A stretch of 29,993 nucleotides of DNA from a virus (IMGVR_UViG_3300042401_001499), one strand, 5' to 3'; shown: positions 5,202-12,352, numbered from the stretch's first letter. A program made the numbers and translations. The notes: generated from the sequence alone by a model not told the origin.

Positions 5202-6122
5202 ATGAGTAGTAGTATATTATTAGGTTTTATAGAGAATGTCTTAGGTAAATCTCACAAGAGAGCACGGGAGAACTATGCTTTTACCTGCCCTAAATGCAAT
5301 CATCATAAGCCAAAACTAGAGGTAAACCTTCATACCAATGAAAAAGGTGAGAATCCTTTCGAATGTTGGGTATGTGGCTTTAAAGGACGTACAATCAAGT
5401 CTTTACTCAAACAGCTACAGATACCGGCCGAACAAGCATACGAAATACTTAAATACGTAAGAAAAGGTGATGAAATAGGTTATGCCCCTGCTTCTGTAGT
5501 AGAATTACCTAAAGAGTTTCAAGCTCTTTATACAGCATCGACCACTTCTATTATAGCAAATAAAGTAAGAAGGTACCTGTATAAAAGAGGTTTTACCGAC
5601 AGAGACTTCCTAAAATACAATATTGGCTACTGTACTTCAGGAGAATACACAGGAAGAGTGATTGTACCATCATATAATGAGAATAACCAGTTAAACTTCT
5701 TTGTAGCAAGAACATTTGAAGATGCTTACCATAAATACAGAAATCCAGAGTGCTCTAAGGATATAATAGGGTTTGAGAACTTAATCAATTGGGCACAGCC
5801 CATTATACTTGTAGAAGGGGTATTTGATGCAATAGCAGTAAAAAGAAACGCAGTACCAATACTTGGTAAGTCTTTGTCAAAATCTTTGATAAAAAAGATA
5901 GTATCAAGTCAGGTAGAAGACATATACGTAGCCCTAGACAGGGATGCATTTAAAAAGGCACTTTCATACACAGAACAGTTTCTGAATATGGGAAAGAAGG
6001 TATATCTAGTAGATATGCAAGATAAGGATCCAAGCGAGATGGGCTTTGCAAGCTTCACTCGTTATGTACAACAGGCAGAGGAAATGGACTTCGGAAAGTT
6101 ACTCCGCTACAAACTATCATAA
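5202..6122 (+). CDS. DnaG-type DNA primase (Zn finger + TOPRIM)
   Basis: CPKC...FECWVC Zn-binding domain, GRVIVP, ILVEGVFDAI TOPRIM motif, ALDRDA, DKDPSEM. Confidence 0.9.
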   Translation: MSSSILLGFIENVLGKSHKRARENYAFTCPKCNHHKPKLEVNLHTNEKGENPFECWVCGFKGRTIKSLLKQLQIPAEQAYEILKYVRKGDEIGYAPASVVELPKEFQALYTASTTSIIANKVRRYLYKRGFTDRDFLKYNIGYCTSGEYTGRVIVPSYNENNQLNFFVARTFEDAYHKYRNPECSKDIIGFENLINWAQPIILVEGVFDAIAVKRNAVPILGKSLSKSLIKKIVSSQVEDIYVALDRDAFKKALSYTEQFLNMGKKVYLVDMQDKDPSEMGFASFTRYVQQAEEMDFGKLLRYKLS

Positions 6123-6123
6123 T

Positions 6124-6906
6124 ATGATACAAAAAGGACAGAATGTTTTGTCAGAACATGCTAAGAAGAGGTTAGATTTTAAACCTGAACTTAAACAGAT
6201 TAACTTCTTAGACAGAAGGGTTTATCAAAGATCAGAAGGAGTATACTACCCTTCAGTTACATCAATTTTACAATACATGCCAAAGAATAAGTTCTTTGAA
6301 TCTTGGTTGAAAGATGTAGGTCACAACTCAGACATTATAATGAGAAGAGCCGGAGATGAAGGTACCCAAACTCACAATGCAATCGAAGAGTTATTAGAAG
6401 GTAAAGAAATCCAATGGATGGATGATTACGGTAATGCCCGATACAATGAACTAGTATGGAGTATGATTATGAAGTTCAAAGAGTTTTGGGAAGTAGCAAA
6501 GCCTGTACTAATCTTCACAGAAGAATTTACTTACTCAGATACTCACAAGTATGCCGGAACAGCTGATATAGTTGTATCGATGAACGGAGAGAATTGGCTT
6601 ATTGACTTCAAAACATCAAATCACCTACATAAATCATATGACTTACAATTGGCAGCTTATGCTAAATCAATTGAAGAAGTAAAAGGTATTAAGATTGATA
6701 GAACAGCTATTCTTTGGTTGAAAGCATCAACAAGAGGAGCTGATAAAGCCGGTAAAAAGATACAGGGTAAAGGATGGGAATTAAAAGTAATAGATGATAT
6801 AGAAAAGAACTTTGAATTATTCAAATTGATCTATAAACTATACGAGATAGAGCATCCAACAACAGAGCCTAAGTTTACCTCATATCCAACCACTATCAAA
6901 CTTTAG
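6124..6906 (+). CDS. PD-(D/E)XK exonuclease (Cas4/RecB/lambda-exo-like superfamily)
   Basis: YPSVTSIL, GTQTHNAIE, YAGTADIV, LIDFKTS, LQLAAY. ATG 6124, just after the primase stop, is preferred over the track start at 6046. Confidence 0.85.
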   Translation: MIQKGQNVLSEHAKKRLDFKPELKQINFLDRRVYQRSEGVYYPSVTSILQYMPKNKFFESWLKDVGHNSDIIMRRAGDEGTQTHNAIEELLEGKEIQWMDDYGNARYNELVWSMIMKFKEFWEVAKPVLIFTEEFTYSDTHKYAGTADIVVSMNGENWLIDFKTSNHLHKSYDLQLAAYAKSIEEVKGIKIDRTAILWLKASTRGADKAGKKIQGKGWELKVIDDIEKNFELFKLIYKLYEIEHPTTEPKFTSYPTTIKL

Positions 6907-6976: not shown

Positions 6977-7885
6977 ATGGGAGGAAACGTATTCGATAGT
7001 ACAGCACCAATAAAAAAAGAGCATATTAAACCAACTCTATTAGAGTTCTTTAAGCAGTTCAAAACAATATTTCCAAAAGCAGAACCATTCTTTAGAGAGA
7101 TGAAAACTCTAGGATCTGTAGGGAAAAAAGATTATTCAGGGGATATTGACCTAGCACTTGCCGGGTCATCCTTTGATGATATAAATGATTGGGGTCTGGA
7201 TGAGAAACACGTTCAAGCTTTATTTGAAGGATTTAAGAAAAGAGCTAGAACCTCTTCTGATGATCAGTTGATGAAAAGAGCTGTAATTGTAGCAGTAGCA
7301 CAGAAAGTGTTAGAGGCTGATACAGAGATTATAGCAGATGTAAAAGGATCAGGAGCAGGAGCTTTATTTCTTTTATTCCCTCAGTATGATGAGAATAACG
7401 AAGTAGTAGGTCAAAACGTTCAAATAGATGTAAATGTAGGAGATGTAGATTGGCTTTCATTTGCTTATCACTCAGCCACTTACTCAGGAAACGTAAAAGG
7501 TCTTCATAGAACACAGTTACTTGTATCTTTATTCTCTCACAAAGGGTATACATTCTCTCACAACTATGGAGTAAAGAGTAAAGAAACACAAGAGATAGTA
7601 GCCAATACACCTCAACAAGCAATCGACCTACTAAACCAGTTATATGGTTTAAATTTAGATCGAGATACAATAGGAGACTATTTTAAGTTGATAGAAACAC
7701 TAGAAGCAGGCTTATCTGAACAAGATTTGCATGCTGTTTATGATACTTATCTTAAGATATTAGATTCAACAAGAGCAGATATACCGGAAGATTTACAGTC
7801 ATATTGGATAGAAAATCAAGAAAGATTAGGACTAAAAGGTAAATTCTTACCAGATAATTCAAACTTAATACAATACAGAGCATAA
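6977..7885 (+). CDS. Pol-beta-superfamily nucleotidyltransferase (paralog 1)
   Basis: LGSVGKKDYSGDIDL = GS-x8-DxD (G46,S47,D56,D58); third acidic residue candidate in NVQIDV. Confidence 0.8.
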   Translation: MGGNVFDSTAPIKKEHIKPTLLEFFKQFKTIFPKAEPFFREMKTLGSVGKKDYSGDIDLALAGSSFDDINDWGLDEKHVQALFEGFKKRARTSSDDQLMKRAVIVAVAQKVLEADTEIIADVKGSGAGALFLLFPQYDENNEVVGQNVQIDVNVGDVDWLSFAYHSATYSGNVKGLHRTQLLVSLFSHKGYTFSHNYGVKSKETQEIVANTPQQAIDLLNQLYGLNLDRDTIGDYFKLIETLEAGLSEQDLHAVYDTYLKILDSTRADIPEDLQSYWIENQERLGLKGKFLPDNSNLIQYRA

Positions 7886-9972
7886 TGAGTGGAGTAGCAG
7901 GAGGAAATAGAATAGAAAGAGGAGATGTACATAATACATTCAATAAATACGTAGAAGAAGTTCTAAGTAAAATACCAGGCTTTAAGAAAGCTTCTCTATC
8001 AGGATCTGTTAAGGCAGGTTCTAAAGCTGACTTTGGAGACTTAGATATCATTGTATGGTTTGAAGGAGACGATAAGAGAGAAGTAAAACAAAGACTTATC
8101 GATGCAGCTTTAGCTCTACCGCAAGACGTAATTGTACCTTTTAAATCAGAAAAGTACACAGGAAGGAGATATTATAACTCAGGAGAACTAATCTCAGTAC
8201 TCTATCCAATTGTAGGAAAAGAAAATGAGTTTATTCAAGTGGATAACATCATTTCTCTTACAGAAGAAGAGCATGCTTTTAAAGGATCATTCTTAGACCT
8301 ACCGGCTGAAAAGCAAGGACTACTAATAGGACTAGCAAAAGTAATTCTATTGGAAGAAAATCCTGAAGAAGTATTTAGAAGAATGGGTATTTCAAATATA
8401 CCTAAACTTGAAAAAGGAGAAGAATACGAATTCAATTTATCATCAGTAAAACTGTCCTTAAGAAAAGTAAAACTAGAAGGCTTTAGAGAGATAGCGAGAG
8501 AAGAAGTTTGGTCAACAACAAGTTGGGGAACCATTAAAATTTTATTTAAGAATTTTAGCATTGACGGGTCTTTTGAAGACCTATTAGATGATATTGCAAG
8601 AAGACTTACAAATGCTAGATCTAAAAATAGAATAGCAGGGATATTCAAATCAATGGTAACTGTTAAATCAGGAGAAGTAGGAACAGCTAAAGGAAAAGGT
8701 AAAGAAGATGCACTTGAAAAAGTAGCACAAACACTTGCTGAAGCTTTAGATGACGGATCAGAAGTAGTAGCTTTATATGCAGGAGGATTTAAACCACCGC
8801 ACCTTGCTCACTTTGAGAATGCTAAGTTTTTATCCACTCAAGCAGATAAGATTGTAATCTTTATTGGACCTAAAATTAGAGAAGGAGTAAAAATTACAGC
8901 AGAACAATCAAAAGCAATTTGGGAGATCTATGCAAAATACATAAATGTACCAGTAGAGATTCAGATCAGTAGAGTAACACCTGTATTAGACATATACGAA
9001 TGGATTGATGCAAATCAAGACAAAGTAACAAGAATTATTACAGGAGCTATGGCTGATGAAATGGGTAAATTCTCAGGAATAGAAAAAGGTAAAGTAAAAG
9101 GTAACTATAAAAACGTAGAAGTAAAAGAACTTCCTATAATTGTAGACAAAGAAGACAGTAAATTCTCAGCAACTGATATTAGAAAGTCAGAAGAGTTCTT
9201 ATTATCAGGTAAATGGATTCCAAAAGTAATATCTAAAGAAGATAAACAAGCAATCGTAGATATTGTAGCACCACAAAAAGAGGATTCAATCGAAGATAAA
9301 ATGCTAACTGCTGTTGATAATGTATTTGAAAGCTTTTTTCCAAAAGAAACTAAGAAAAAAGTAGTAAAAGAAGGATCATCAGGAACACCAATAGCTGCAT
9401 CAGGAGCTATTCCGTCTAAAGATAGAGCAGACTTACTAGACCTATTCAATCAACTAAGACAAACAGTAGATTCAGATAAATTTACAGTAGTATTTAATCA
9501 GGATAGAATTGACATTTACGTTAAGACATACTCAGATGTAAGCTTTGATCAAACCCCTTATCAAAAACACCTACCGGAGTCAGTAGAGCAAGAAAAATTT
9601 AACTACACTCCATACATAGCATCTATTTTAGAGTATATGCTTGATGAAGGTATGAATATACAACCACTACCAGAGGTAAAAGTAAGGTACGATGAAGATC
9701 AAGCCAATAACTTCTTCGGTAGAACAGCTTATTACAATCCAAATAATAAGGAAGTAATTCTATATGTACTTGGAAGACATCCTAAAGATGTTTGTAGATC
9801 CTTTACACATGAAATGATACATCATATTCAGAATATTGAAGGAAGACTTGAAGGATTAGCAGCTACTACCAATACAAATGAAGACTCAAACCTACAGGAA
9901 ATAGAAAAAGAAGCTTACCTAAGAGGTAATATAACCTTCAGAAACTGGGAAGACGGAGTAAAAAGTAAATAA
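7885..9972 (+). CDS. Fusion: Pol-beta nucleotidyltransferase + HIGH-type cytidyltransferase-like domain + zincin metallopeptidase-like domain
   Basis: SGSVKAGSKADFGDLD (G40,S41,D52,D54) and FIQVDN; YAGGFKPPHLAH (8776-8811) with SATDIRK (9166-9186); FTHEMIHHIQ (9808-9822) followed by EKEAY. Confidence 0.8.
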   Translation: MSGVAGGNRIERGDVHNTFNKYVEEVLSKIPGFKKASLSGSVKAGSKADFGDLDIIVWFEGDDKREVKQRLIDAALALPQDVIVPFKSEKYTGRRYYNSGELISVLYPIVGKENEFIQVDNIISLTEEEHAFKGSFLDLPAEKQGLLIGLAKVILLEENPEEVFRRMGISNIPKLEKGEEYEFNLSSVKLSLRKVKLEGFREIAREEVWSTTSWGTIKILFKNFSIDGSFEDLLDDIARRLTNARSKNRIAGIFKSMVTVKSGEVGTAKGKGKEDALEKVAQTLAEALDDGSEVVALYAGGFKPPHLAHFENAKFLSTQADKIVIFIGPKIREGVKITAEQSKAIWEIYAKYINVPVEIQISRVTPVLDIYEWIDANQDKVTRIITGAMADEMGKFSGIEKGKVKGNYKNVEVKELPIIVDKEDSKFSATDIRKSEEFLLSGKWIPKVISKEDKQAIVDIVAPQKEDSIEDKMLTAVDNVFESFFPKETKKKVVKEGSSGTPIAASGAIPSKDRADLLDLFNQLRQTVDSDKFTVVFNQDRIDIYVKTYSDVSFDQTPYQKHLPESVEQEKFNYTPYIASILEYMLDEGMNIQPLPEVKVRYDEDQANNFFGRTAYYNPNNKEVILYVLGRHPKDVCRSFTHEMIHHIQNIEGRLEGLAATTNTNEDSNLQEIEKEAYLRGNITFRNWEDGVKSK

Positions 9973-9986
9973 AAATAAAAAAGGTT

Positions 9987-10361
9987 ATGAAAAAAACAAA
10001 GGTTACAAAGAAGCAGATCGTTGAGTATGTAGAGAAGTACATAGTTGAAGTAGAGAACCACTATGGTTTGTCAAAACATCAGCAAACCTCTCCACACATA
10101 TATCTAAGCAAAGATATTATAGACGACATAAAAGGAGAGTATTGTTACTTATTCAATGAGATAACAATATACTACAATAACATAGGAAGCTTAGAGGAAC
10201 TAATACGAACGGTTATTCACGAATATCAACACTACCTACAGTCACCATCTTGGATGACCAGGTATTATAGAATGGGATACGATTATTCAAATCATCCATA
10301 CGAAGTAGCAGCATATAACGAAGAAGAAAATTGGGAGACAATATGGAAACAAGCATCGTAA
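9987..10361 (+). CDS. Small zincin-like (HExxH) metallopeptidase
   Basis: TVIHEYQHYLQ (10218-10232) followed by NHPYEVAAY, a third-ligand Glu helix. Confidence 0.7.
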   Translation: MKKTKVTKKQIVEYVEKYIVEVENHYGLSKHQQTSPHIYLSKDIIDDIKGEYCYLFNEITIYYNNIGSLEELIRTVIHEYQHYLQSPSWMTRYYRMGYDYSNHPYEVAAYNEEENWETIWKQAS

Positions 10362-10927
10362 CATTACTGGGAGCTGAAAAGCTACCATATCAGATATACT
10401 GTGATATGGACGGAGTATTAACAGACTTTGAAAAGAGATTTATAACTCTTTTAAGAAAAGAAGGGCCAAAATACTACTCAAAAGCAACAATTGCACAAGT
10501 AACAAGACCTAAGCACTTCGAAAAGATAGAGGGACAGGAAGAATTCTGGAAATTTATTGATCAGCATATAGGATTAGAGTTCTGGTCTGAAATGCCTTGG
10601 ATGCCAAATGGAAAAGCATTATGGGACTTTATTCAACCCTATGGTCCAAAGCTTTTAACATCTCCTTCAAGAGATAATACTTCAAGACTTGGAAAAAGAC
10701 TGTGGGTAAAAGAGAATCTAGTACCTGCTCCTGAAGTAATTTTTAGATTTGGAGATGCTAAGTCGGATTTTGCAAATGAAAACTCTATATTAATAGATGA
10801 TAAACCTTCTAACCTAGCTGCATTTGCCGCTAAAGGGGGAATATCAATAGAATGTAAAGATGGAGATATTTCATCGGTTATAAATGAATTAAAAGAACTT
10901 GGTTATGGCAAAGGAGAGCTTACTTAA
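10343..10927 (+). CDS. HAD-superfamily 5'(3')-deoxyribonucleotidase-like phosphatase
   Basis: IYCDMDGVL (motif I), LLTSP (II), GKRLW (III), ILIDDKPSN (IV). ATG 10343 preferred over TTG 10331. Confidence 0.85.
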   Translation: METSIVTLLGAEKLPYQIYCDMDGVLTDFEKRFITLLRKEGPKYYSKATIAQVTRPKHFEKIEGQEEFWKFIDQHIGLEFWSEMPWMPNGKALWDFIQPYGPKLLTSPSRDNTSRLGKRLWVKENLVPAPEVIFRFGDAKSDFANENSILIDDKPSNLAAFAAKGGISIECKDGDISSVINELKELGYGKGELT

Positions 10928-11486
10928 AAAAGAATTTACCTCAAAAGATGTTAACAGGGCTAGAAACCTAGTCAATAAAGACTTCTCAGCAAAGACAGTT
11001 GACGGTGTAGGATATGCCAAAGCACATGTAGCATATACAGAGGGAGATATTTGGGAAGAGAGTGGAAGAACTTGGACTATTAGGAATGGACTAAGACAAA
11101 ACATCACCAAACTCGATGCAGCTAAGAAAGCAATGCAAGTACCCCTAGCATGTCCAAAATGTAAAGGATCAATGCAACACCATCTAGCACAGAAAATGTA
11201 TAAGATACATAAAATGTGTTTTGATTGCGTGATTGACTACGAAGCAGAACTAAGAAAAGCAGGTCTTTATGAATCGTATGAAAAGAATATGATGCAGGGG
11301 AGTATGAAAGCTTTTGCTAGAGATGTAGAGCAATGGGTCTTTGATAGTTTAGAATCAACAAACACTTTTGTAACTGAACAAGGAGATGTAGAGGATTGGA
11401 ATAGTGATGATTCTAGATTTAAAGAACAAACCAACAAGAATCTTCAGGAGTACCTAAAACACATCAGAAGCCATATAGATTCGTAA
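10905..11486 (+). CDS. Zn-finger hypothetical protein
   Basis: CPKC...CFDC motif; ATG 10905 preferred over TTG 10899. Confidence 0.7.
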   Translation: MAKESLLKKEFTSKDVNRARNLVNKDFSAKTVDGVGYAKAHVAYTEGDIWEESGRTWTIRNGLRQNITKLDAAKKAMQVPLACPKCKGSMQHHLAQKMYKIHKMCFDCVIDYEAELRKAGLYESYEKNMMQGSMKAFARDVEQWVFDSLESTNTFVTEQGDVEDWNSDDSRFKEQTNKNLQEYLKHIRSHIDS

Positions 11487-11676: not shown

Positions 11677-11937
11677 ATGAAACTACTAAAAGTACTTCAC
11701 GAGAATTACGGAGGACCAGGTGAACTAGTCTTACCAGAATCACATCAAGCTGGAATGAGAGTTACCAAAGGAGGTTCCATGTGCGCAAATTGCGAATACT
11801 GGACTGAAGAAGGGAACCTATGTACAAGTAAATACTGGAAGAAGTGGTCTGAGGTAGAGGAAATACCCTATCCTGCAGATGAATACTGCTGTAACTGGTG
11901 GGAACCAATGCCTGAAGAAGATAATGCAGAAGTCTAA
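11677..11937 (+). CDS. Small Cys-rich protein (HiPIP-like Cys spacing) with MKLLKVLHE leader
   Basis: CANCEYW...C...YCCNWW. The track start at 11605 overlaps the 11535 ORF, so ATG 11677 is preferred. Confidence 0.65.
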   Translation: MKLLKVLHENYGGPGELVLPESHQAGMRVTKGGSMCANCEYWTEEGNLCTSKYWKKWSEVEEIPYPADEYCCNWWEPMPEEDNAEV

Positions 11938-12352
11938 ACTTATACAACTAGTTAGAGAAGCATTAGATGCCTCTACAACTGCTCCTAATAACATCCCAGG
12001 AGGACTAGCTCAGTATGCTACAGTAGGAGATTTAGCTAAAATGCATAAACTACCTCTCGATGAGATTATAAAGCAGATAATAAAAGGGGTAAAAGTAGAA
12101 TCAGAACATACAACAGATTTGGATATTGCTATGGAAATAGCATTTGACCATGTTTACGAGAATCCTACATATTACGATGATTTAAAAAAAATAGAAGAAG
12201 GAGTACACGATCCTGTTCAACCAGGTATCTTAAAAGATAGGTTAGGTAAACTGTCCTGTACAAAAGTAAGAACAGCACATTCAGCATTAGAAGATAAGGG
12301 TACTCATTACGGAAAAGCATTACAAAGATACCTAAATTATCATTGCAAATAG
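11924..12352 (+). CDS. DUF5661-like protein plus small C-terminal module
   Basis: KGVKVESEHTTDLDIAMEIAFDHVYENPTYY resembles the DUF5661 signature (from recall); ATG 11924 (MQKSKLIQLVRE) preferred. Confidence 0.6.
   Translation: MQKSKLIQLVREALDASTTAPNNIPGGLAQYATVGDLAKMHKLPLDEIIKQIIKGVKVESEHTTDLDIAMEIAFDHVYENPTYYDDLKKIEEGVHDPVQPGILKDRLGKLSCTKVRTAHSALEDKGTHYGKALQRYLNYHCK

Follow-up and report, generated by a model that had tools for sequence, protein, structure and literature searches.

A 29,993-nucleotide stretch of viral DNA (IMGVR_UViG_3300042401_001499), referred to here as the window and drawn from a 55-kb fragment record, contains at positions 6977–10927 a single co-transcribed cassette of a marine, Immutovirus-like Flavobacterium myophage. 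Four open reading frames (ORFs) on the plus strand, defined by ORF calling and domain analysis, encode six domains: two predicted Pol X-like nucleotidyltransferases (NT1 and NT2), a HIGH-type adenylyltransferase domain, two HExxH (zincin-like) domains and a HAD-type nucleotidase. The cassette is real, conserved and uncharacterised, and it unites familiar types of protein (mini Pol X, NMNAT, zincin and NT5C) in an undescribed combination. We infer, tentatively, that it may be a nucleic-acid end and gap repair kit coupled to NAD+ supply.

An initial annotation of this DNA had described the four ORFs, their TAATG coupling and the six domains, and had been unable to match the whole to any described system. 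ORF calls and the motifs in the translations confirm the layout, the domain calls (Pol-beta fold twice, HIGH, HExxH and HAD nucleotidase) proved right, and the absence of a match to a described system is upheld. New in the present analysis are the exchange of a kinase for the Pol X-like pair in one slot of the locus, a census of fusion architectures, conserved cleavage motifs in the linkers, the deazaguanine and ligase context, and a ligase-like neighbour in the phage Atu_ph07.

Two predicted mini Pol X-like nucleotidyltransferases

NT1 (P0001; 6977–7885) is a 302-amino-acid (aa) ORF. NT2 (7885–8742), a diverged mini Pol X-like palm and thumb, occupies aa 1–286 of the 695-aa fusion protein P0002 (NT2-HIGH-linker-zincin 1; 7885–9972), whose start overlaps the NT1 stop as TAATG at 7883–7887. 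The translations carry MGGN, GS..DID and VQID in NT1 and GGN, GS..DLD and IQVD in NT2, which bears out the GGN openings, GS..DxD motifs and third Asp that had been read in both; the metal site formed by these elements is intact in each protein. An exhaustive HMMER search placed NT1 in a family of 269 clusters at 50% identity. G46, S47, S54, D56, D58, Q149, D151 and G175 of NT1 are invariant in an alignment of 55 sequences, with a nearly invariant N-terminal GG, and G40, K47, G51, D52, D54, Q118 and D120 of NT2 are invariant in 19 sequences. Conservation of catalytic residues, which the initial annotation had named as a check, was found to be complete or nearly so in the relatives.

An AlphaFold2 model of NT1 built from the 55-sequence alignment (predicted local distance difference test score, pLDDT, 96.5) divides into a palm and thumb (aa 1–235) and an extra C-terminal helical domain (aa 236–302). 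Its top eight matches among solved structures are all family X DNA polymerases. The best is African swine fever virus (ASFV) Pol X (Z 9.4, 165 of 176 residues aligned), and Pol beta, Pol lambda, TdT, Thermus (Tth) PolX and Leishmania Pol beta score Z 8.3–9.2. RNA uridylyl- and adenylyl-transferases (TUTases and poly(A) polymerases) reach Z 7.2 at most over about 100–110 palm residues, and lower scores were obtained for MenT1 (Z 5.3, 91 aa), CdnG, CdnC and OAS1 (Z 4.3–5.1) and the CCA-adding enzyme (Z 4.1). MNT-type toxins appear among the structural matches of NT1 only. Foldseek returned Pol beta for NT1 in the PDB (E 2e-6), and giant-virus proteins named 'DNA polymerase family X' were matched in AFDB clusters and BFVD.

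The fusion protein was modelled from a 38-row alignment of related viral loci (model m0b0fd6bff751, pLDDT 82.6). Its first 234 residues, representing NT2, match Pol beta (Z 11.7), TdT (11.6), Pol lambda (11.4), Pol mu (10.9) and ASFV Pol X (10.5, 164 of 176 aa), with Foldseek giving Pol lambda and Pol beta at E 1e-6; the CD-NTases CdnE and CdnB follow at Z 8.4–8.9 over about 108 aa of palm only, below every Pol X entry. The alignments of both models cover Pol beta residues 142–338, which include the thumb subdomain. Both begin at the equivalent of Pol beta residue 142–144, and the 8-kDa lyase and the fingers (helix-hairpin-helix) domains are absent. ASFV Pol X also lacks these two domains, so their absence excludes a Pol beta-type enzyme and not a mini Pol X.

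NT1 and NT2 are diverged paralogues of a phage-only family with a predicted mini Pol X-like fold. The paralogy proposed initially stands at the profile level, where the two families align with an hhalign probability of 94.7% (E 6e-8) over 154 columns that span the GGN start, GS..DxD, the strand that bears Q-x-D and the first helix of the thumb, but it is invisible to BLAST, which aligns the GS..DxD stretch alone (E 0.48). Neither window protein matches a Pfam family (including DNA_pol_B_palm and thumb) or a PHROG; three relatives lie at or just above the Pfam Pol X cut-off of 25 bits (P0134 at 25.7, P0202 at 27.5 and one from locus L045 at 25.0). A co-fold of the NT1 and NT2 domains scored 0.02, below the mark of 0.32, and is uninformative on pairing either way.

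The likeness to ASFV Pol X (pO174L, 174 aa; PDB 5hr9) lies in an equally small size, in a build of palm and thumb only and in the GS-x8-10-DxD motif with a third Asp. Unlike this enzyme and the other members of family X (Pol beta, lambda, mu, TdT and bacterial PolX), to which they show no significant sequence similarity, NT1 and NT2 each add the C-terminal helical domain and the conserved N-terminal GGN, and they occur in tailed phages as a tandem or fused pair that is recurrently fused to an NMNAT-like domain. Mini Pol X-like enzymes are known from ASFV and giant viruses, and our literature search found no description of them in tailed phages. The NT1 family nearly always travels as a pair and is repeatedly fused to an enzyme of the NAD-synthesis type.

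The initial annotation had listed CCA-adding, MNT-type and CD-NTase-like enzymes as Pol-beta family candidates. By fold comparison Pol X is the best match for both proteins and these candidates (CCA, MNT/MenT and CD-NTase) lie lower, and a reading as protein AMPylases gained no support. It had also offered, as one candidate, the making or subverting of nucleotide signals to counter CBASS- or Thoeris-type defence; in such a scheme a CD-NTase- or OAS-like oligonucleotide synthase would work with the nucleotidase as a signal degrader. Three nucleotide-transfer sites and a phosphatase would suit such nucleotide chemistry, and the lower-ranked matches of NT1 (CdnG, CdnC and OAS1) and NT2 (CdnE and CdnB) point in the same direction; these matches, however, cover the shared palm core alone and rank under all Pol X entries, and the neighbourhood holds DNA-replication genes and no CBASS, Thoeris or effector-like partner. 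The immune-signal reading gained no support and strikes us as highly improbable.

A HIGH-type domain of the NMNAT/PPAT class

Downstream of NT2 in the fusion, aa 291–466 (8755–9282) are predicted to form a Rossmann fold of the class of nicotinamide mononucleotide (NMN) and phosphopantetheine adenylyltransferases (NMNAT and PPAT), with HxxH and SxTxxR motifs. The translation reads GGFKPPHLAH and SATDIR, HLAH being a variant of HxGH with Ala for Gly, and G300, K303, P304, P305, H306, H309, A429 and R433 are conserved, the two motifs in 32–35 of 35 sequences. Structure comparison by VIA-align gave NadM NMNAT (2qjt, Z 13.2), M. jannaschii NMNAT (Z 12.4, 20% identity), PPAT (Z 12.2) and NadR (Z 11.7), with further matches to NadD enzymes. 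Family profiles score below their thresholds: Pfam CTP_transf_like reaches 14.8 bits (cut-off 21), and the best NCBIfam model, NMNAT, 19 bits (E 8e-4, cut-off 127), with PPAT at 18 bits. A relative with a more canonical HIGH domain, the HIGH-NT1 fusion P0126, matches NadM-type NMNAT at E 2.7e-7 and PPAT at 0.021. NAD-related metabolism, one of the pathways considered initially, gains support because the predicted fold of the HIGH domain is of the NMNAT class.

The domain shares its Rossmann HIGH fold, HxxH and SxTxxR with NadM, NadR and NARP3 (PMC13464706), and relatives of the cassette pair HIGH with a P-loop kinase as NadR does. It differs in lying far under the family cut-offs, in having HLAH for HxGH and in being fused to Pol X-like and zincin domains. 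NARP3 itself is a phage NadR-like NMNAT and nicotinamide riboside (NR) kinase that occurs with a PnuC transporter (PMC13464706). The pairing of NMNAT and NR kinase seen in NARP3 and NadR is absent from the window, although an NMNAT-like domain is paired with a kinase in the kinase-type relatives. The window also differs from NadR and NARP3 in having no Nudix or RNK partner, and no PnuC partner was seen, PnuC not having been searched for.

Synteny and domain fusions in related phages

Co-occurrence across related phages had been set beforehand as a test of the cassette, and it holds in the 76 distinct syntenic viral loci that we identified in an IMG/VR scan, with profile searches run on their ORFs. 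The syntenic block comprises the primase, the exonuclease, a variable slot, HIGH-zincin, the second zincin, NT5C and a Cys-rich 193-aa protein. HIGH-zincin is constant in all 76 loci, primase and exonuclease are syntenic in every locus that reaches that far, and the Cys-rich protein directly follows the HAD gene in nearly all. The variable slot is filled by NT1 and NT2, the latter fused to HIGH, in the immuto-like group and by a P-loop kinase in a more distant group. Four loci (L066, L067, L075 and L077) have NT5C and HIGH-zincin in a single fusion. In immuto 2-6A the cassette lies between the tail-fibre genes and the terminase, portal, protease and capsid genes, well away from both the main replication cluster and the Que/DpdA cluster. 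A tblastn search against 50,697 phage records matched only the three immuto isolates.

We next compared architectures among 98 NT1-family cluster representatives of at least 250 aa. These fall into 13 architectures with up to five recognised domains in 1549 aa. NT1 and NT2 are fused in at least 12 of the 98, always in the order NT1-NT2; HIGH is fused to NT1, before or after it, in 12, and zincin is fused in four. The 1549-aa protein P0144 (NT1-HIGH-DUF5661-IMM_ZN2-LINKZN) includes both zincin types. Since relatives fuse the parts in many orders, the parts of the cassette appear to be functionally linked.

More distant homologues are found in other settings. On an unrelated T4-like contig, HIGH-NT1 and NT2-X have as neighbours gp32, FolE2, a Rad50-like ATPase and a 5'-3' exonuclease, and two distant NT1 homologues lie on contigs too short for context. 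The Agrobacterium jumbo phage Atu_ph07 has an NT1 orthologue (E 1e-31) that starts MGGRAF and overlaps a gene with a KxDG (KLDG) motif; the product of this gene matches RNA_ligase (PF09414) over its full length at 18.7 bits, with a cut-off of 27, and has no homologue in immuto-type genomes.

The Atu_ph07 orthologue stands near a tandem array of ORFs of about 250–360 aa (L092:1319-11944; record positions 43318–53943). Nine of these ORFs begin with a common leader, MRWEQLTE/MKWEQLTE in type and in one case MRLFQLLETAEE; several carry a YRGM or YRGI motif (possibly ART-like), and a 362-aa member is a weak GNAT match. The array is followed, in order, by one leaderless ORF, the NT1 orthologue, the RNA-ligase-like gene and a gene whose product weakly matches LPD3.

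A highly conserved predicted zincin and its variable surroundings

The C-terminal domain of the fusion, zincin 1 (9571–9972, aa 563–695), carries the motif HEMIHHIQNxEGR and exceeds every other part of the cassette in conservation. Among 27 sequences with an identity of just 50–79% elsewhere, 34 of its columns are invariant; the invariant residues include H642 (H83 in alignment A4), E643, H646, H647, Q649, E652 and R654, and the conserved stretches read HEMIHHIQNxEGR and EIEKEAY..GN..FRNW. No Pfam or PHROG family matches the domain, and the zincin profile found no sequence match in the PDB; its relatives give sub-threshold matches to Pfam DUF6782. Structurally, its model matches Wss1 (5xbn) at a borderline Z of 8.6 with 101 aa aligned, and its neighbours in the Atlas are small viral zincins of the M78, SprT and DUF3920 types. 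Zincin 1 is thus predicted to have a small metallopeptidase fold like that of Wss1 and SprT.

Wss1 is a DNA-protein-crosslink protease. The likeness to Wss1, SprT and Spartan consists of the small zincin fold with HExxH, and the HEMIH of zincin 1 is identical to the Spartan motif. Zincin 1 differs from Wss1 in having E652 where Wss1 has a third His, as judged from spacing, and in having no DNA-binding or SHP/VIM/SIM modules. We propose, from spacing alone, that E652 (position +10) may serve as the third metal ligand.

The second HExxH protein, zincin-like protein 2 (P0003; 9987–10361, 124 aa), carries HEYQHYLQS. The initial count of two HExxH proteins stands as far as the motifs are concerned (HEMIH in the fusion, HEYQH in the 124-aa protein), but the second shares with the first just a strand and the HExxHxxQ motif (hhalign probability 24%). 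It has weak matches to PHROGs of unknown function and to Pfam DUF3920. The second zincin slot varies even among close relatives: the window has the free 124-aa HEYQH protein, whereas immuto 2-6A and most relatives have a different HEIEH domain joined to the upstream protein. In immuto 2-6A this unrelated domain, of about 210 aa (L001:11000-11634), forms the C-terminus of a 907-aa product.

Between HIGH and zincin 1 lies a linker (9283–9570, aa 467–562) that is disordered, with pLDDT below 50 at aa 466–508 and 549–568 and a small helix/hairpin element between. Around aa 495–505 it contains VVKE/GSSG, an instance of a motif [VIL]-x-E/GSSGTPI that is kept in about 22 of 33 relatives, including some that are 33–40% identical, and the border of NT2 and HIGH carries TL(A/S)E/A. 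LxE-type sites are conserved within otherwise variable linkers. This pattern supports the view that the fusion may be a polyprotein cut at prohead-protease-type sites.

Several relatives have large inserts (about 190 aa or more) in the HIGH-zincin linker or lengths of 1079–1496 aa (L032:6001-8625, L022:980-4219 and L045:3296-7786), and L045 has a Zn-ribbon domain, DUF1451.

Variable multi-domain architectures around a constant zincin hub recall the polyvalent proteins (Iyer et al. 2017, PMC5512222), which likewise shuffle enzymatic domains, are encoded near virion genes and are predicted to be delivered with DNA. An alternative fitting that concept is that the cassette encodes injected effectors, with the nucleotidyltransferases modifying host proteins or tRNA ends in the manner of MNT, MenT or DrrA and the zincin freeing the domains after delivery. 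The BFVD matches of NT1 include a 1096-aa ParB/Sulfiredoxin protein of an uncultured Caudovirales phage, the Atu_ph07 orthologue lies within a leader-tagged array near the GNAT and weak LPD3 matches, and the sole sequence-level PDB matches of NT2 are DrrA and minimal nucleotidyltransferases (E 0.04–0.07, not significant). The Pol-beta nucleotidyltransferases of polyvalent proteins, however, are minimal four-strand, MNT-like forms from Firmicute elements, and neither NMNAT nor the set of Pol X-like, NMNAT-like and NT5C domains is described among them (PMC5512222), whereas NT1 and NT2 have a full Pol X-type thumb. With MenT matching NT1 over 91 aa at just Z 5.3 and the Pfam MPTase-PolyVal model unmatched, we regard this alternative as rather improbable.

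Nucleotidase, kinase and their leader peptides

The last gene encodes the HAD protein P0004 (ORF 10331–10927), for which a start at ATG 10343 (10343–10927) is more likely than one at TTG 10331. With DMDGV and LIDDKP in the translation, a Pfam NT5C score of 25.9 bits (cut-off 24.8) and a match to PHROG 2643 '5'-3' deoxyribonucleotidase' (E 2e-21), it is an NT5C-type HAD 5'(3')-deoxyribonucleotidase. A short N-terminal extension, METSIVTLLGAE, precedes the DMDGV core. The NT5C nucleotidases of relatives carry a leader MGNLTDLLLEE (e.g. L009:8726-9325).

The P-loop kinase of relatives is a protein of about 309 aa that matches Zeta_toxin and AAA_33 (E down to 1e-18) and is translationally coupled to HIGH; it is found at L040:5060-5989, L047:5063-5995, L066:3821-4624 and 14 other loci, and begins MIKLTDLILEA. 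Unrelated kinase and nucleotidase proteins are headed by near-identical leaders, MIKLTDLILEA and MGNLTDLLLEE. The two appear to be versions of one transferable N-terminal tag, akin to the capsid-targeting leader of T4 with its L-x-E cleavage site. The kinase has no match in the window record or in four near-complete relatives with the Pol X-like pair (immuto 2-6A, L028, L015 and L074).

An extra ORF of about 200–320 aa separates exonuclease from kinase in the relatives of the kinase type, L036–L065, and overlaps part of the kinase gene (e.g. L040:4675-5298). Its product has a signal peptide like that of lipoproteins and a low-complexity stretch in which N, R, S, Y and W abound.

The kinase suggests a further reading, in which it and the HIGH domain would act as a split NadR (NR to NMN to NAD+) that, like NARP3, rebuilds NAD+ lost to NADase defences, with the nucleotidase and Pol X-like proteins as accessories or serving related nucleotides. 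The best matches of the HIGH domain are NadM, an archaeal NMNAT and NadR, the coupled Zeta/AAA_33 kinase of relatives lies directly upstream of HIGH, and the leader on kinase and HAD protein would suit enzymes delivered early. One near-complete relative, G011, also has a Nampt-family gene. However, the family is absent from the other four of five near-complete genomes and the window and immuto genomes have no kinase copy, which leaves no evident source of NMN; moreover, the kinase matches Zeta/AAA_33 and not NR-kinase families, and this reading offers no role for the invariant zincin or for the two Pol X-like sites, which are the commonest HIGH fusion partners. We consider such a counter-defence role unlikely, though worth keeping in view. 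If the HIGH domain makes NAD+, the cassette would represent a new architecture in the NAD+ arms race between phages and bacteria.

Modified guanine and ligases in cassette-bearing genomes

The DNA of immuto 2-6A contains no detectable deoxyguanosine (dG), which is replaced by 7-(formylamino)methyl-7-deazaguanine (fdPreQ1) through a phage preQ1 pathway and DpdA3 (10.1101/2023.04.13.536721). A DpdA homologue is present in all six cassette records that are at least 90% complete and QueC in four of the six; in the other two the DpdA-like match is weak (29% identity) and QueC was not found. Because the genomes compared are kin, this co-occurrence is not independent evidence. Phages of this group have two family A polymerases, one of which is divPolA1; the paper on divPolA1 mentions no Pol X (10.1101/2024.04.26.591309).

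This context raises the possibility that the cassette supports a 7-deazaguanine genome: a Wss1-like protease would clear trapped DpdA-DNA intermediates, the Pol X-like enzymes would refill abasic or gapped sites, and NT5C would drain dGMP. Among phages with deoxyuridine (dU) or hydroxymethyluracil (hmU) in their DNA, nucleotidases that keep out a canonical base are known. In addition to the missing dG and the DpdA and QueC genes, the idea could draw on FolE2 adjoining HIGH-NT1 in the unrelated contig and on the match of zincin 1 to 5xbn, a DNA-protein-crosslink protease by its entry title. Set against this are the borderline score of that match, the kinship of the genomes and the weak DpdA-like match without QueC in two of the six, and the 70 kb that separate the cassette from the Que/DpdA cluster in immuto. 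On balance, such a role has a fairly low probability in our estimation.

Searches with PF01653, PF01068 and PF09414 (NAD-, ATP- and RNA-ligase) gave no match in immuto 2-6A or in the near-complete relatives G007 and G010, whereas two others, G005 and G011, carry both the cassette and a ligase-family gene. Since two of the five near-complete relatives combine the cassette with such a gene, its presence does not follow the loss of a ligase, and the notion that it replaces a missing ligase is weakened.

G002, G007 and G010, the records behind loci L009, L046 and L071, are 160–190 kb long and have their own polymerases, helicase, primase, single-stranded DNA-binding protein and RecA, with no ligase Pfam match.

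A possible end and gap repair kit with its own NAD+ supply

The reading that we place ahead of its rivals is a kit for repairing ends and gaps in nucleic acid, coupled to a supply of NAD+. In it, the Pol X-like pair would add nucleotides at 3'-OH ends where phage DNA is gapped or broken. The HIGH domain would turn NMN and ATP into NAD+ and so sustain the NAD+-dependent ligase of the host, a supply that would matter because a recognisable ligase is missing from immuto and from two of the four other near-complete relatives. The nucleotidase may trim phosphorylated nucleotides or ends, with the P-loop kinase of relatives performing a complementary step, and the zincin may cut the polyprotein or remove protein stuck to DNA. 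The conserved [L/V]-x-E sites at domain borders, and the leaders of T4-like type that kinase and nucleotidase have in relatives, suggest that the prohead protease may cleave the pieces, which would then travel in the head and act as infection begins; the place of the cassette between tail-fibre and head genes is a further hint.

The position of the cassette beside primase and exonuclease genes, the DNA-related neighbours of HIGH-NT1 and NT2-X in the T4-like contig (gp32, exonuclease and the Rad50-like ATPase) and the ligase-like gene overlapping the NT1 orthologue of Atu_ph07 speak for this proposal, as do the folds, the conserved active sites and the fusions. Pol X has been linked with NAD chemistry before, in the giant virus Phaeocystis globosa virus (PgV), whose PolX is reported to be fused to a NAD-ligase-like domain (PMC5537341). 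The two systems are alike in combining a viral Pol X-like core with a NAD-related nucleotidyl-transfer domain in one polypeptide of a virus with its own repair genes; the cassette differs in that the partner is a predicted NAD-forming HIGH domain and not a NAD-using ligase domain, in having no lyase, and in adding a zincin and a nucleotidase.

Several points weigh against the proposal. The enzymatic roles of all parts are predicted ones. The sequences and profiles of NT1 and NT2 found nothing significant in the PDB, so that the Pol X likeness is structural; its Z scores of 9–12 are just 2–3 units above those of RNA nucleotidyltransferases, and the models lack the 8-kDa and fingers domains through which Pol beta binds gapped DNA. 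NMNAT and PPAT are tied within one Z unit for the modelled HIGH domain, and a dNMP nucleotidase has no obvious role in repair. The ligase-family genes of G005 and G011 also count here. Finally, an N-terminal leader is missing from NT1, NT2 and most HIGH proteins; the N-terminal pattern [LIVMF]{2}x0-2E, tried as a leader test, also matches the primase and exonuclease and was rejected as unspecific, which restricts the leader evidence to the near-identical leaders of kinase and HAD protein. Taken together, these considerations make us view the repair-kit proposal as a tentative one, held somewhat short of even confidence.

A bolder variant, which takes the recurrent union of NMNAT-like and Pol X-like domains for a two-part sealing machine, would need no classical ligase. 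The HIGH domain would use ATP to adenylate the 5'-phosphate of a DNA or RNA end (AppN), the same chemistry as the conversion of NMN to NAD+, and the Pol X-like site would seal the nick through attack by the 3'-OH, with AMP replacing pyrophosphate as leaving group; kinase and nucleotidase would then serve in end healing. We give this ligase-free sealing only the slimmest of chances.

If the Pol X-like pair does act on DNA ends, the cassette would amount to a phage-borne repair kit, perhaps carried in the capsid, in phages without normal guanine and often without a ligase. Whatever its role, it offers several small nucleotide enzymes that are predicted to be well folded and for which there are clear assays.

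Neighbouring genes and transcription signals

Upstream of the cassette on the plus strand are a DnaG-type primase (5202–6122; PHROG 47 DNA primase, E 8e-40) and a PD-(D/E)XK exonuclease (probably 6124–6906; PHROG 298 exonuclease, E 3e-42). Downstream on the same strand, the gene for the Cys-rich 193-aa protein (10905–11486), which has no Pfam or PHROG family match, overlaps the end of the HAD gene, and a linked gene encodes a DUF5661 protein (11879–12352; Pfam DUF5661, E 3e-11). The cassette junctions that follow the TAATG overlap consist of a 14-nucleotide gap or an overlap, and the plus strand of the block contains no terminator-like site. Sigma-70-like promoters and terminators in the window occur at chance level only. 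The 8-mer TATTTATA, examined as an enriched late-box word, has 8 matches (window 3532–27225) with 4.9 expected, and was rejected when 15 of 100 shuffles reached 8; with no copy between 3539 and 15916, the box is not directly ahead of the cassette.

A SegE-type GIY-YIG homing endonuclease is encoded upstream of the primase (1859–2308), and one is found in the same place in the distant relatives L083 (L083:5130-5546) and L086 (L086:5773-6216).

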